Part shown: in pieces, positions 6,009-35,880 of the stretch
Position numbering within the stretch: the stretch's first letter is position 1
Layout: each line of letters begins with the position of its first letter
Translations under genes and position numbers: made by a program
Notes under the pieces: model-generated
Told to the model about the DNA's origin: nothing
Databases searched by the model: none
Seen by the model: the letters and a program-made list of their open reading frames with translations, nothing else
Origin: Candidatus Fimenecus sp.
GTDB taxonomy: Bacteria > Bacillota > Clostridia > Oscillospirales > Acutalibacteraceae
Reading direction: 5' to 3'
Assembly (NCBI GenBank): GCA_051881415.1
Contig: JBJEPV010000127.1
Location: 1 to 35,880 of the forward strand
DNA: 35,880 nt

Positions 6009-6033
6009 GTAGGGAACGGTCTTGACCGTTCCG
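6009..6033 (+). repeat. REP-like element, GTAGGG head plus 9-bp hairpin (GTAGGGAACGGTC-TT-GACCGTTCCG)
   Basis: Identical 25-mer at 35234-35258 (+) and 6349-6373 (-). Lies 27 nt upstream of the RAYT-like ORF. Confidence 0.75.
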
Positions 6034-6059
6034 AAAAAAGGAAAAGTCAACCGCGGGAA

Positions 6060-6569
6060 ATGGGTGAAACTATGAATTTGCCAAACAGAAAATTACCGCG
6101 TTTAAAAGACTATGATTATGCCGCACAAGTGTATTATTACCTCACGGTTTGTACGCATAATAAGGAAAACATATTTGGTTGTGTAGGGAACGGTCAAGAC
6201 CGTTCCGCCGTGCATCTCACAAAAATCGGAAAAATCGCCGAAGCAGAACTCTTAAAAATTCCAACTCGCTATAACGGTGTTCGGATTGACGATTACATCG
6301 TTATGCCGAATCATATTCATCTGATTTTGATTTTGGGCTGTGACCTTGCGGAACGGTCAAGACCGTTCCCTACGGTATCGGAAATCATCGGGCTTTACAA
6401 ATCGGGCGTGAGCCGACGGATACACGCGGAAACAGAGTATCAAAACCCGATTTGGCAGAAATCATTTTATGATACCGTTTTGACAAACGAACAGCAGTAC
6501 CTTTCCGTTCGAGAATACATTGCCTATAATCCTATTAAATGGAAACAGGGAAAAGGAACGGATTTTTAA
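6060..6569 (+). CDS. REP-associated tyrosine transposase-like protein (IS200/IS605 Y1 HUH superfamily, RAYT-like)
   Basis: HUH motif in [13 protein letters not shown]. The C-terminal block [30 protein letters not shown] parallels, from memory, the E. coli RayT/YafM block WQPRFWEHAIRN..DY...VDYIYINPVKHG that carries the catalytic Tyr. Cognate-looking GTAG-headed hairpins are adjacent and internal. The start (6060 vs 6072) is uncertain. Confidence 0.75.
6183..6207 (+). repeat. intragenic REP-like copy (GTAGGGAACGGTC-AA-GACCGTTCCG)
   Basis: Same head and stem as 6009-6033, but the loop dinucleotide is AA instead of TT. Read in frame as VGNGQDRSA inside the RAYT ORF. Confidence 0.7.
6349..6373 (-). 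repeat. intragenic REP-like copy, inverted orientation
   Basis: The reverse complement of 6349-6373 is exactly GTAGGGAACGGTCTTGACCGTTCCG. Read in frame on the plus strand as AERSRPFPT, immediately after the HUH strand. Confidence 0.7.
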
Positions 6570-33381: not shown

Positions 33382-34725
33382 TCAGCCATTTCCTGTCTTT
33401 GCCGCCGCGTATATGCATTTTCGTAAAGCGTCTTTTTCGTTTTCGCATTGTTCCGTAATGACAAGTTCCAACAGCCGATTTAAAGCGTCACGGATTTCTT
33501 TTCCGTCCGGAATGCCCGCCGCTTTCAGGTCATCGCCGTTTACGGCGAGTCCGCGCAAATCGTAACATTCCTTGTTTTCGAGGATTTCTGCAAGAAAATC
33601 TTCCATCCGCCGCAGTTTGTCGTCAATCGCGTGGGGCTGTGCCTTCCCGCGGTTGTCCGCGCGTTTGATTTTTATCAGCGCACGGTAATTTTCAACCCCG
33701 ATTTCTGACAACAGCTGTTTTGCCTCGATTTTGGTTTTCGGGGATTTCAGGTCGTGTATGGCAATCCACCTCGTGACATCTTTTACGGTGTTGTTGTCAT
33801 AGCGCAATCGCTTTAAAATCGGCTCAACAATTTCCGCGCCGACCTTTTGGTGCCCTTTAAAATGGTCTGTGCCGTTTTGGTCAGTTTTACGGCAGACGGG
33901 TTTGCCGAAATCGTGAAAAAACATACAAAGCCGTAATTTTTCGGTCGGTTCGGTATTTTCAAGCGCGGCGAGTGTGTGGCGGTAAACATCAAAGCAGTGG
34001 TATACCGTGTTTTGCGGGCAGTCGAACAGCGCGCGCACTTCGGGGATAAACACGGCAATCACCTCGCGGTAACGGTCAAGCACCGCGGCGGCATTTTTGC
34101 CGCACAACAATTTCGAAAACTCCACACGAATCCGCTCGGCGGCGACCTTAGATAATAATTGTCTATTGCGTAAAATGCTTTCCGCGGTTTCTGCTTCTAT
34201 CGTAAATCCGAGTACCGAGGCAAAGCGAATGCCGCGCAAAATCCGCAACGCGTCCTCCGAAAAACGGCAGTCGGGGTTGCCTACCGCGCGCAGAATGCCG
34301 TTTTGCAAATCCGCAAGACCGCCGCACAAATCGACCACACCGTCCTGCTCGTTCCAGCAAAGCGTGTTGACCGTGAAATCGCGGCGCAGTAAATCTTCTT
34401 TCAAATTGCGCGTAAAGGAGACGCTTTCGGGGTGGCGCGCGTCAAGATAGTCGCCGTCCACGCGAAAGGTGGTAATTTCCAACGGCAACCCGTCTGAAAG
34501 TACCGTGACCGTGCCGTGCTGTAAGCCCGTTTCAATCAGGCGGCAATCCGCAAAAACGCGCTCGGTTTCTTCGGGGCGCGCGTCGGTGGTAATGTCCCAA
34601 TCCAAAGGCGTTTTGCCAAGCAGACTGTCGCGCACACAGCCGCCGACAGCGTAGGCTGCAAAGCCGTTTTCGTGCAAACGGCGCAGAGCGGCTTTTACTT
34701 GTTCGGGTGCGAGAATTTCGGGCAT
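33382..34725 (-). CDS. cca: CCA-adding tRNA nucleotidyltransferase with HD domain
   Basis: ATG 34725 lies 7 nt after AAAGGAGA (the ORF-track start 34782 is upstream and in frame). Head-domain AVGGCVRDSLLGK...DWDITT, RRDFTVN, and HD motif FFHDFGKP...GHQKVGA. Confidence 0.88.
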   Translation of the reverse strand: MPEILAPEQVKAALRRLHENGFAAYAVGGCVRDSLLGKTPLDWDITTDARPEETERVFADCRLIETGLQHGTVTVLSDGLPLEITTFRVDGDYLDARHPESVSFTRNLKEDLLRRDFTVNTLCWNEQDGVVDLCGGLADLQNGILRAVGNPDCRFSEDALRILRGIRFASVLGFTIEAETAESILRNRQLLSKVAAERIRVEFSKLLCGKNAAAVLDRYREVIAVFIPEVRALFDCPQNTVYHCFDVYRHTLAALENTEPTEKLRLCMFFHDFGKPVCRKTDQNGTDHFKGHQKVGAEIVEPILKRLRYDNNTVKDVTRWIAIHDLKSPKTKIEAKQLLSEIGVENYRALIKIKRADNRGKAQPHAIDDKLRRMEDFLAEILENKECYDLRGLAVNGDDLKAAGIPDGKEIRDALNRLLELVITEQCENEKDALRKCIYAAAKTGNG

Positions 34726-34762
34726 GGTGCGGTCTCCTTTTTTGCGGTGTACTGTTATTCCT

Positions 34763-34792
34763 ATTCTACCACAACCCGACACCTATTTACAA
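34763..34792 (-). promoter_or_regulatory. sigma-A-like promoter with extended -10 for cca
   Basis: On the minus strand: TTGTAA (34792-34787), 18-nt spacer ending in TGG, TAGAAT (34768-34763). Confidence 0.45.
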
Positions 34793-34837
34793 GAAAAAAG
34801 AAATACGATATAATAATATGGATTTATACCTTATATT

Positions 34838-34945
34838 CCTCCCTCCGTGAGGGAGGTGGCATTTTCGCTTGCGAAAATGACGGAGGAAGTTTGCCGCGTA
34901 TATTGCATACTTCCTGCAAGCGGGAGGTGGCACGGCGTAGCCGTG
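34838..34945. repeat. block of four short hairpins without a 5' GTAGGG head
   Basis: Four stems: CCTCCCTC-CGT-GAGGGAGG (34838-34856); CATTTTCGC-TT-GCGAAAATG (34860-34879); AGGAAGT...ACTTCCT (34884-34915); CACGG-CGTAG-CCGTG (34931-34945). GGGAGGTGGC is duplicated at 34851 and 34922. Confidence 0.6.
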
Positions 34946-34956
34946 ACGGCGGGCGC

Positions 34957-34983
34957 GTAGGGACGGGCGTCCTCGCCCGTCCG
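34957..34983 (+). repeat. REP-like element (GTAGGGACGGGCG-TCCT-CGCCCGTCCG)
   Basis: GTAGGG head followed by a perfect 9-bp GC-rich stem with a 4-nt loop. Confidence 0.7.
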
Positions 34984-35018
34984 CAAAAATTCATCCAATT
35001 TCCGCGGGCGAACGCCGC

Positions 35019-35149
35019 GTAGGGACGGGTGATTCCCCTGATAGGGGAAATGTTTGCGAAGCAAACAAAAGGGTGCCAGAATTCGGAGAATTTGCTCCCG
35101 ACGCAAGGTGCCCGTTTTCGGAGAAAATCCTCGCCCGTCCGCCCCCTAC
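35019..35149. repeat. composite REPIN-like unit bounded by inverted GTAGGG heads
   Basis: Left end is GTAGGGACGGG (35019, +). Right end is CCTCGCCCGTCCGCCCCCTAC (to 35149; reverse complement GTAGGGGGCGGACGGGCGAGG), which repeats the 3' arm of the 34957 element. The interior carries its own hairpins, TTCCCCT/AGGGGAA and TGTTTGC/GCAAACA. Confidence 0.55.
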
Positions 35150-35154
35150 GAATT

Positions 35155-35181
35155 GTAGGGAACAACCTTAGTGTTGTTCCG
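35155..35181 (+). repeat. REP-like element (GTAGGGAACAAC-CTTAGT-GTTGTTCCG)
   Basis: Same GTAGGGAAC...GTTCCG frame as the RAYT-linked element but a different stem core. Confidence 0.7.
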
Positions 35182-35201
35182 TAAAATCGCATTAAAATTC
35201 A

Positions 35202-35228
35202 CGGGCGGCCGAGGTCGTCCGCCCCTAC
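35202..35228 (-). repeat. REP-like element, inverted (GTAGGGGCGGACGACCTCGGCCGCCCG on the minus strand)
   Basis: GTAGGG head on the minus strand with a GGGCGG/CCGCCC stem. Paired tail-to-tail (hairpin ends adjacent, heads outward) with the 35155 element across a 20-nt AT-rich linker. Confidence 0.65.
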
Positions 35229-35233
35229 CATAT

Positions 35234-35258
35234 GTAGGGAACGGTCTTGACCGTTCCG
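35234..35258 (+). repeat. REP-like element identical to the RAYT-proximal copy
   Basis: 25/25 identity with 6009-6033 and with the reverse complement of 6349-6373. Confidence 0.8.
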
Positions 35259-35278
35259 TAAATTCATATCAAAATTGA

Positions 35279-35304
35279 CGGGCGACAAGTGAATTGCCCC
35301 TGTA
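35279..35304 (-). repeat. degenerate inverted REP partner
   Basis: CGGGCGACAAGTGAATTGCCCCTGTA parallels CGGGCGGCCGAGGTCGTCCGCCCCTAC of the previous unit, after a similar linker (TAAATTCATATCAAAATTGA vs TAAAATCGCATTAAAATTCA). The head is decayed to CCCCTGTA. Confidence 0.4.
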
Positions 35305-35325
35305 ATCGGAAAGGATTTTGTATCA

Positions 35326-35532
35326 ATGAACCAACAAAAAATCGACCGTATCAATTTTTTGGCGAAAAAGAGCAAAACGCCCGAGGGGTTAACCGACGCC
35401 GAGCGCGCCGAACAGCACGCCTTGCGGCAGGAATATCTTGCGGGATTTCGCCGCAATTTACACGCGCAACTCGATAATATCTATCTGGTTGACGAAAACG
35501 GCAACAAACGGAAATTGGAGAAAAAGCAATGA
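35326..35532 (+). CDS. DUF896 (UPF0291 / YnzC-like) small protein
   Basis: 68 aa. KIDRINFLAKKSKTPEGLTDAERAEQHALRQEYLAGFRRNL closely parallels, from memory, the B. subtilis YnzC pattern (IARINELA.KAK...T.EE..EQ..LRQEYL.GFR). Confidence 0.85.
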   Translation: MNQQKIDRINFLAKKSKTPEGLTDAERAEQHALRQEYLAGFRRNLHAQLDNIYLVDENGNKRKLEKKQ

Positions 35533-35749
35533 GCGAAACCGTAAAATGCGGAAGATACCGCCACTTTAAAGGCAACGAATATGAGGTTTTGGGCACGGCA
35601 ACCCATTCCGAAACTTTGGAAGAATTGGTTGTGTACCGTGCGCTCTAAGGTGAGGGGAGTTGAACACAATATGCCGAAAATTTGATATTACGGCGTATTT
35701 TCACTTTTTCACCGTTGTCGGGCGTCAGCCCGCCTGCCGCTTCAAAAGC
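35529..35749 (+). pseudogene. DUF1653-like gene, apparently disrupted (premature TAA, then a frame change)
   Basis: The ATG at 35529 overlaps the DUF896 stop (ATGA), with GGAGA 7 nt upstream. It encodes MSETVKCGRYRHFKGNEYEVLGTATHSETLEELVVYRAL and stops at 35646-35648, exactly where DUF1653 proteins have the Tyr of YRALYG. The next residues are GEG. A C-terminal-like stretch (FFTVVGRQPACRF, compare F.ETVEVDG..VPRF) continues in another frame from 35654, across a GGGG run. Confidence 0.45.
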
Positions 35750-35880
35750 AAAAATCCATCCGTACTCTCTGCATTTTCGGTGCAGAGCAGTTTAAAACGA
35801 GGAGATTTTTGCTTGAACAAGGCACAAAATCGCCGCCATACTGCCGTATGGCAAGATTTTTAACGCAGTTCAGGCGAAAA

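Follow-up and report, generated by a model that had tools for sequence, protein, structure and literature searches.

The repeat array at positions 34957-35304 of a 35,880-nucleotide contig of Candidatus Fimenecus sp. (JBJEPV010000127.1; this entire stretch is referred to below as the window) is very probably a GTAG-type array of repetitive extragenic palindromes (REPs) resembling the bacterial interspersed mosaic elements (BIMEs) of Escherichia coli, in which each class of hairpin stem, near variants included, has its own REP-associated tyrosine transposase (RAYT), and whose units have amassed upstream of a gene of the DUF896 family. The window constitutes contig C127 of a 2.06-Mb metagenome-assembled genome (MAG; G000) comprising 247 contigs, and the neighbors of its CCA enzyme assign it to Candidatus Fimenecus within the Clostridia. 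To our knowledge, REP and BIME elements and their RAYTs have been studied almost exclusively in Proteobacteria.

Within the array, six intact GTAGGG heads are present at 34957(+), 35019(+), 35149(-), 35155(+), 35228(-), and 35234(+), while a seventh, decayed head, CCCCTGTAA, lies at approximately 35297-35305, and a GC-rich palindrome or hairpin is found behind every head. An initial annotation, made from the sequence alone, had placed these heads exactly, including the decayed one near 35304, and the stems it named are indeed present. The GTAGGG hexamer occurs 12 times in the window as a whole, compared with 6.1 +/- 2.5 in shuffled sequences, none of which reached 12 in 100 trials; the density within the array, six heads in 348 nt, compares with 0.16 heads expected at the genome-wide rate (Poisson P ~2e-8). 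Folding z-scores against background indicate that each REP arm of the array folds on itself as single-stranded DNA (ssDNA), with values of -4.8 for the lone REP at 34957 and of -3.2 and -2.6 for two doublets taken as wholes.

Read from left to right, the array begins with a plus-strand GGAC-type REP at 34957-34984 (GTAG followed by GGACGGGCG / TCCT / CGCCCGTCC; -13.1 kcal/mol), which differs by one base from a REP embedded in a RAYT gene elsewhere in the genome (C161:2151-1612). It is followed by an intra-doublet linker (34985-35004) and a truncated minus-strand class C REP arm, CGGGCGAACGC (35005-35015), recognized by comparison with intact doublets of GGAC and GGGCGAAC arms such as that at C149:2509. 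The 131-nt element at 35019-35149, which is treated separately below, is separated from the next unit by the spacer GAATT (35150-35154; five occurrences of this spacer). Next stands a plus-strand convergent doublet (35155-35228) consisting of a class F REP (GGAACAAC / CTTAGT / GTTGTTCC), a 21-nt linker (35181-35201), and an inverted GGGCGGACGA-type REP. Beyond the spacer CATAT (35229-35233), a second plus-strand convergent doublet (35234-35305) joins a class B REP (GGAACGGTC / TT / GACCGTTCC) through a 21-nt linker (35258-35278) to a decayed, inverted class I-like REP whose head has mutated to CTGTAA. These two right-hand doublets repeat with a period of 77-79 nt, and the similarity initially claimed for their AT-rich linkers amounts to 84% identity across 32 nt. 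The reported match between the array and the window's own RAYT gene was likewise confirmed, the REP at 35234-35258 being identical at 25/25 positions to that at 6009-6033 upstream of the gene.

Two elements of the earlier description hold in part. Firstly, the orientations alternate throughout the locus only if the truncated remnant of a class C arm (35005-35015) is included. Secondly, unrelated stems do share the GTAGGG head, but the locus draws on 6-7 stem classes and not on four. The abundance of these stems varies widely: scored as 12-mers (the head plus the first eight stem bases), GGAACGGTC is present in 108 copies and GGAACAAC in 33 across the genome, while the GGACGGGCG and GGGCGGACGA stems are rare, with 3-4 copies each.

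A genome-wide scan of the kind that the initial annotation had proposed demonstrated that the association between head and hairpin extends far beyond this locus. When a hairpin was defined as a stem of at least 6 bp starting within 4 nt of the head, 703 of 949 GTAGGG sites (74%) had one next to them, versus 17-47%, and mostly ~20%, for 14 control hexamers. The sequence following GTAGGG is strongly skewed to families, among which at least 10 dispersed stem classes can be distinguished. By 9-mer counts these are class A (GGCGGGGGC, 101 copies), class B (GGAACGGTC, 100), class C (GGGCGAAC, 55), class D (GGGCGGG with an 8-nt loop, 77), class E (GGAACGAC, 39), class F (GGAACAAC, 29), class G (GGGCGTGC, 29), class H (GGGTCGGCG, 25), class I (GGGCGATTC, 23), and class J (GGAACGGGC, 14), with additional smaller GGAC and GGGGC groups; an overall tally puts the number of classes with more than 20 copies each at no fewer than 10, the 9-mer table giving 14 for class J. 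The stems of the array are accordingly members of dispersed families and not peculiarities of this site.

All classes have GTAGGG and a closing CC-G in common. Members of a superclass agree in proximal stem and loop and differ, with compensation, in their distal stem pairs, and the two superclasses, GGAAC...GTTCC and GGGCG...CGCCC, are equally numerous at 199 copies each, as would be expected if they are near-constant partners in heterotypic doublets. Only 30% of REP heads fall inside open reading frames (ORFs) of at least 150 aa, while such ORFs, as delimited by a crude stop-to-stop mask, cover 89.6% of the genome. In carrying GTAG at one end of a GC-rich palindrome of 20-40 bp, in their high dispersed copy number, and in their mostly extragenic location, these elements display the features by which the GTAG REP superfamily is recognized (Di Nocera, 2013). 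A side effect of this abundance can be seen in the assembly itself, where 101 of the 494 contig ends have a REP head no more than 150 nt away; the genomes of the genus that are rich in RAYT matches also tend to be the most fragmented, and REP repeats evidently break short-read assemblies.

Throughout the genome, the REPs are arranged in a manner resembling that seen in the window. Neighboring heads no more than 200 nt apart are found 176 times in +- and 137 times in -+ order, versus 70 times in ++ and 58 times in -- order, and convergent doublets of 60-80 nt number 111. Approximately 90 of the 111 are heterotypic, consisting of a GGAAC- or GGAC-type arm, a linker near GCRAAATCACATCAAAATYCAC, and an inverted GGGCG-type arm, and the same arm combinations recur (BxD 19, BxC 17, ExD 14, BxI 7, FxD 4, FxC 3); homotypic AxA doublets, of which there are ~20 (17 in the combination tally), have a linker of their own. 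The linker within doublets is ~21 nt long, conserved, and AT-rich. Between adjacent doublets, the CCCTAC-N-GTAGGG spacing from head to head favors two lengths, 4-5 nt (51 cases), to which GAATT at 35150-35154 belongs, and 20-22 nt (83 cases), the longer spacer being a conserved sequence in its own right.

The designation of the locus as a BIME-like mosaic was therefore apt: alternating orientation, several REP types, and conserved linker motifs are all observed, and this pattern is repeated at many loci. The heads fall into 304 clusters, of which 140 are single and 164 contain at least two heads; 17 have at least six, and the largest have nine. Seen against this distribution, the locus in the window is typical of BIME-like arrays, if on the large side, and has no special standing as a growth point. 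The 111 doublets likewise share with the REPINs (REP doublets forming hairpins) of Pseudomonas the arrangement of two inverted REPs about a short spacer. The doublet may be the mobile unit. Only the AxA doublets could form a single long hairpin, however; those in the window have arms of different classes and fold as two independent hairpins.

The enzymes that might read these hairpins were sought in the genome contigs with the PF01797 profile and by tblastn. Six full-length RAYT paralogues with ~40% mutual identity were found, on C127 (the window), C14, C161 (two genes), C188, and C52, together with an N-terminal fragment (C2) and two different C-terminal fragments (C106, C194) at contig ends, giving at least eight genes. 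The full-length paralogues retain the HUH motif and the tyrosine (HIHLIL; Y..YI.YNP), and their best solved relative in profile comparison is E. coli TnpA-REP (4ER8, E 2.2e-8), which scores better than ISDra2 TnpA. The RAYT locus of the window, cognate to class B, occupies 6009-6569(+), with an ORF at 6060-6569; of its three class B REPs, that at 6009-6033 precedes the ORF, and the other two are located in frame within it (6183-6206, +; 6350-6373, -), where they flank the HUH motif. This arrangement is general: all six full-length paralogues and the C2 fragment carry an in-frame REP of their own class at one or two homologous ORF sites, and the C127, C14, and C188 genes have upstream REPs as well. 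The stems so assigned are class B for C127, class E for C14 (12730-12239), GGGGCGACGA and GGACAGGCG for the first and second genes of C161, class A for both C188 (17191-16682) and C52, and class D for the C2 fragment. Among 23 RAYT genes of congeners, 21 have a GTAG hairpin within the ORF, occupying one of the homologous sites or both, with stems that include class C (L108), class I (L110), class H (L112), and a D-like stem (L109). No GTAGGG hairpins were found near an IS200-like TnpA gene in the same genome (C72; 135.9 bits to PF01797).

The initial annotation had left it open whether a single RAYT or a small RAYT family services the several stem classes, and the gene content favors the latter. 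That one promiscuous enzyme reads the shared GTAGGG head and serves all classes, the other paralogues being irrelevant or inactive, is very unlikely. Such an enzyme would account for the GTAGGG and closing CC-G common to all stems, in vitro work on group 3 enzymes identifies GTAG as the key determinant (PMC8266576), and several classes are without a complete RAYT in the assembly. Set against this are the presence of a stem class of its own in each of the six full-length paralogues and the C2 fragment, and likewise in congener RAYTs, and the constancy of proximal stem and loop within a superclass, suggestive of recognition that extends to these parts. In a weaker form the proposal may hold, in that near-variant stems with compensated pairs and the same proximal stem and loop, for instance GGAACGAC and GGAACAAC or the variants of the GGAC type, may share an enzyme.

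Further evidence against a single enzyme is provided by the distribution of repeats and genes across 41 genomes of the genus. The class B pattern GTAGGGAACGGTC is found 106 times in G000, 83 times in G023, and 66 times in G019, with 13 and 2 copies in two other genomes and 0 in the remaining 36, while a reversed control pattern yielded 0 copies in all 41. Outside G000, genes at least 72% identical to the RAYT of the window occur in G019 and G023 only. Since the abundance of class B follows this specific paralogue, the assignment of one enzyme to each class is supported. In both G019 (L121, G019:C29) and G023 (L122, G023:C29), the HUH-coding core of the orthologue has been removed, by a different deletion in each genome: one is fused at the embedded REP, and the other is 185 nt in length.

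Several observations weigh against the proposed relationship between enzymes and repeats. The abundance of class B persists in the two genomes in which the HUH core has been lost, such that an active enzyme is not currently needed for REP abundance. Class A, present in 29 of the 41 genomes, has just a loose link to its RAYT and was consequently not used as support. For classes C, F, G, H, I, and J, the fragmented assembly yields no complete RAYT, and the RAYT of the window scores 64.5 bits against the NCBIfam model for REP-associated tyrosine transposases (NF047646), below the cut-off of 80. Nearly all doublet sequences are distinct (76 different among 84), so that the REP population looks old and shows no sign of a recent burst; the few identical copies sit within larger repeated blocks. 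Lastly, TnpA-REP reads only one strand of a REP, which does not readily account for movement of a heterotypic doublet as a unit.

The pair of heads at 35019(+) and 35149(-), originally described as a plain REP pair, proved to be something different, namely a nested composite of 131 nt (35019-35149, +; z -3.9). The composite consists of a head and arm (GTAG plus GGACGGGTG, 35019-35031), a first hairpin (35033-35049), a second hairpin (35052-35066) followed by AAAAGGGTGCC, hairpin 3a (35079-35093), a class A 3' arm (GCTCCCGAC, 35094-35102), hairpin 3b (35114-35128), a closing arm (TCGCCCGTCC, 35131-35140), and a minus-strand head (GCCCCCTAC, 35141-35149). Its interior is related to a module of three hairpins, composed of GATTCCCCTGnnAGGGGAA, GTCyGCGAAnGCrGAC, AAAAGGGTGCC, and a third hairpin, of which the genome contains 37 copies, all of them housed in loops of REPs of the A, D, H, or GGAC type. 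In an alignment of 17 copies, 97% of cells in the module are paired, versus 35-57% when partners are slid, and five pairs are altered on both sides. An intact triple nest on contig C222, in which the loop of a D REP holds the module, the module an inserted A REP, and the loop of that REP the module again, aligns through its inner part with 35019-35149. From this alignment, the composite looks like a deletion derivative that arose by collapse between the two repeated first hairpins of such a nest; it may also occupy the loop belonging to the truncated class C arm (35005-35015), although this placement is ambiguous. Separately, module variants in which hairpin 2 is swapped for TGTTATAATAAA and a complete class A REP were observed at C29:170, C85:4537, C183:1027, C233:13289, and other sites, and TGTTATAAT in these variants is like an extended -10 promoter element.

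The module is not confined to genomes with RAYTs. A 22-nt pattern for its first hairpin, searched against the 41 genomes, was found in eight, including three for which the profile search returned no RAYT (G013, G039, and G001), with 18 copies in G013 alone. In G013 and G001 (L131-L136), hairpins 1 and 2 and the following AAAAGGGT are part of another dispersed repeat that has no GTAG head, while in G039 the module is located in a D-type GTAG REP. No Rfam family matched the module in these RAYT-free congeners. The nesting raises the tentative possibility, which we consider doubtful, that hairpin loops act as ssDNA insertion targets through which REPs and module enter each other, that heterotypic doublets need two RAYT paralogues, one for each strand, and that at least eight RAYT-REP lineages would thereby interact combinatorially.

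The history of the array itself can be examined by comparing congeners, using as a cross-species anchor the flanking gene for the CCA tRNA nucleotidyltransferase (cca; 33382-34725, -; NF009814, 298.8 bits, above cut-off). In four congeners whose CCA enzyme is at most 80% identical (L015, L017, L018, L019), the orthologous site is empty, that is, ~125 nt long and free of repeats. Closer congeners carry two heads (L012, L016), three (L013), six (L014), or seven (L010), and the classes differ. The last doublet of the window, decayed head included, is common to L016, and the class F doublet is common to L010 and L014 with 93% identity; in L010 and L014 this F doublet stands beside a different B doublet, while L016 has the BxI' doublet only. 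The left part of the array is shared with no congener compared, in a setting where the flanking cca is 93% identical at the DNA level. With the site empty in distant congeners and differently filled in closer ones, units are gained and lost between species at this position. The comparison of related genomes that had been suggested for this purpose thus revealed differences by whole units, and the idea of a growth point is upheld as far as growth between species is concerned; a special status is not, the locus being one of 164 clusters with multiple heads.

An assembly artefact was ruled out as the source of the array, as individual doublets and junctions recur, with ~93% identity, in independent MAGs. 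An alternative that accepts the array as genuine is that it grew locally, by tandem duplication, slippage, and recombination or gene conversion between dispersed arrays, and not through insertion by a transposase. Processes of this kind have clearly left traces: the right-hand doublets repeat at 77-79 nt with similar linkers, multi-doublet blocks recur together with their flanking linkers, and deletions between repeated hairpins are seen in the 131-nt element as well as in two congeners' RAYT genes. A neighboring family of hairpins provides a further example. Abutting the array at 34835-34956(+) are two units of a head-less family with the structure CCTCCCTC..GAGGGAGGTGGCA-hairpin-TGACGGAGG (also written with TGACGGAGGGAG; z -5.8), to which nearly all of the 28 GGAGGTGGCA sites in the genome belong, and seven tandem copies of this 66-nt unit stand at the orthologous place in L013. 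The family resembles Rfam whalefall-1 only weakly, at 24.6 bits, which is below the cut-off of 37. As an account of the array, however, local growth is unlikely, as adjacent doublets carry different arm classes that each match dispersed families (class B at 25/25 positions), two of the doublets occur separately in other species (L016; L010 and L014), and the empty site in distant congeners means that the first units must have come from elsewhere.

The same comparison bears upon the possible function of the array. A promoter-like site, TTTACA-17-TATAAT (34786-34814, +), matches the consensus at 11 of 12 positions and reads towards the DUF896-family gene downstream of the array (35326-35532, +; NF002711, E 3e-19), and the array would therefore form part of the 5' leader of this gene if the site is used. 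The stop codon of the DUF896 gene is overlapped (ATGA) by a DUF1653-like ORF (35529-35648) that has 39 codons and looks truncated. The position of the array between a near-consensus promoter-like site and a gene, its strong folding, and the effects of REPs on mRNA reported in E. coli (PMC3733652) would suit a leader selected by the host as an attenuator, RNA stabilizer, or protein-binding site for the DUF896 operon. Such a role is highly improbable as an explanation of the array: the promoter-like motif is kept in congeners with an empty site, which have the same motif and gene and no array, the composition differs in every species, and identical units are found at hundreds of unrelated sites. 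In addition, a search of 34700-35880 against Rfam returned, within the array, only a chance-level match to CRISPR-DR29 (34957-34987; 22 bits against a cut-off of 39, E 0.078), and a terminator scan found no terminator-like site in the array. The latter result rules out a stack of terminators; a CRISPR array was also ruled out, given that the units differ, their orientation alternates, and the CRISPR-DR29 match is at chance level.

Taken together, the data favor a GTAG-REP array built by class-specific RAYTs, for which the following anatomy and mechanism can be proposed. The basic unit is a GC-rich hairpin of 24-30 nt with GTAG in front, and the usual unit a convergent doublet of ~70 nt with its heads outward, in which a GGAAC or GGAC REP is joined by an AT-rich linker of ~21 nt to an inverted GGGCG REP. 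Arrays consist of such doublets standing side by side at fixed head-to-head spacings, and REPs and the separate three-hairpin module are also nested in hairpin loops. Most likely, a stem class and its near variants are read as folded ssDNA by a RAYT paralogue of their own. By analogy with TnpA-REP, these HUH/Y1 enzymes would make their cuts next to the hairpin and join the strands again, and catalysis by RAYTs would underlie the spread of REPs in Fimenecus. At the site in the window, units would have built up between the promoter-like site and the ribosome-binding region of the DUF896 gene, with a composition dependent upon the species.

The value of the system lies less in this particular array than in its density and diversity and in the natural RAYT deletions of its sister species. 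A gut Clostridium of 2 Mb packs ~700 REPs of at least 10 stem classes together with at least eight RAYT paralogues, while sister species represent natural RAYT knock-outs in which the HUH core is deleted and 66-83 cognate REPs remain. Fimenecus may consequently serve as a compact natural system in which to study the specificity of enzyme for hairpin and the decay of repeats after enzyme loss. In the part of the REP/RAYT literature covered here, no REP families are described in Clostridia, and RAYT group 1 and subclass 1.1 are stated to occur in Clostridia also; within that coverage, the array represents a known type of element in a host group for which it is not described.

Comparison with characterized systems indicates that the Fimenecus system fits the pattern of multi-class REP/RAYT systems in both anatomy and gene content. 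TnpA-REP enzymes require GTAG and bind the folded hairpin formed by one strand of the cognate REP; they cleave next to this hairpin and rejoin strands, and enzymes and REPs have co-evolved (PMC3333891, PMC3479197, PMC8266576). Genomes that combine multiple REP classes with several RAYTs and hybrid dimers have been described in Stenotrophomonas and Pseudomonas (PMC2817692, PMC3733652). With the BIMEs of E. coli (REP Y/Z) and the TnpA-REP/RayT "REPtron" (PMC3333891, PMC3479197; 4ER8), the Fimenecus elements share GTAG hairpins, two alternating REP types, conserved linkers, extragenic clusters, and an HUH/Y1 enzyme related to 4ER8; the E. coli BIMEs additionally bind the host proteins IHF, gyrase, and Pol I. 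They differ in that the stems are short perfect palindromes where those of E. coli are bulged, in having at least 10 classes and at least eight RAYT genes where E. coli has one RAYT, and in the presence of cognate REPs inside the RAYT ORFs, a feature that, like the Clostridium host, sets them apart from published REPtrons.

The IS200/IS605 elements and their hairpin-ended miniature derivatives are similar in that an ssDNA hairpin is recognized by a Y1 HUH transposase; they are set apart by the closer match of the Fimenecus RAYTs to TnpA-REP than to ISDra2 TnpA and by the C72 TnpA, which is without GTAGGG hairpins. The REPINs of Pseudomonas (Bertels and Rainey, 2011; PMC3116915) correspond in their two inverted REPs with a short spacer, their association with a RAYT, and their diverged copies, whereas most Fimenecus doublets, AxA excepted, have non-complementary arms and fold as two hairpins. 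Similarly, Stenotrophomonas maltophilia and Pseudomonas fluorescens (Nunvar, 2010, PMC2817692; Di Nocera, 2013, PMC3733652; RAYT group 3, PMC8266576) possess short perfect GTAG palindromes and several REP classes with cognate RAYTs, organized as homodimers, heterodimers, and hybrid dimers. Fimenecus departs from these two species in belonging to a different phylum, in its 2-Mb genome, and in the three-hairpin module nested in REP loops, and from S. maltophilia, in which hybrids account for ~10%, in the dominance of heterotypic doublets.

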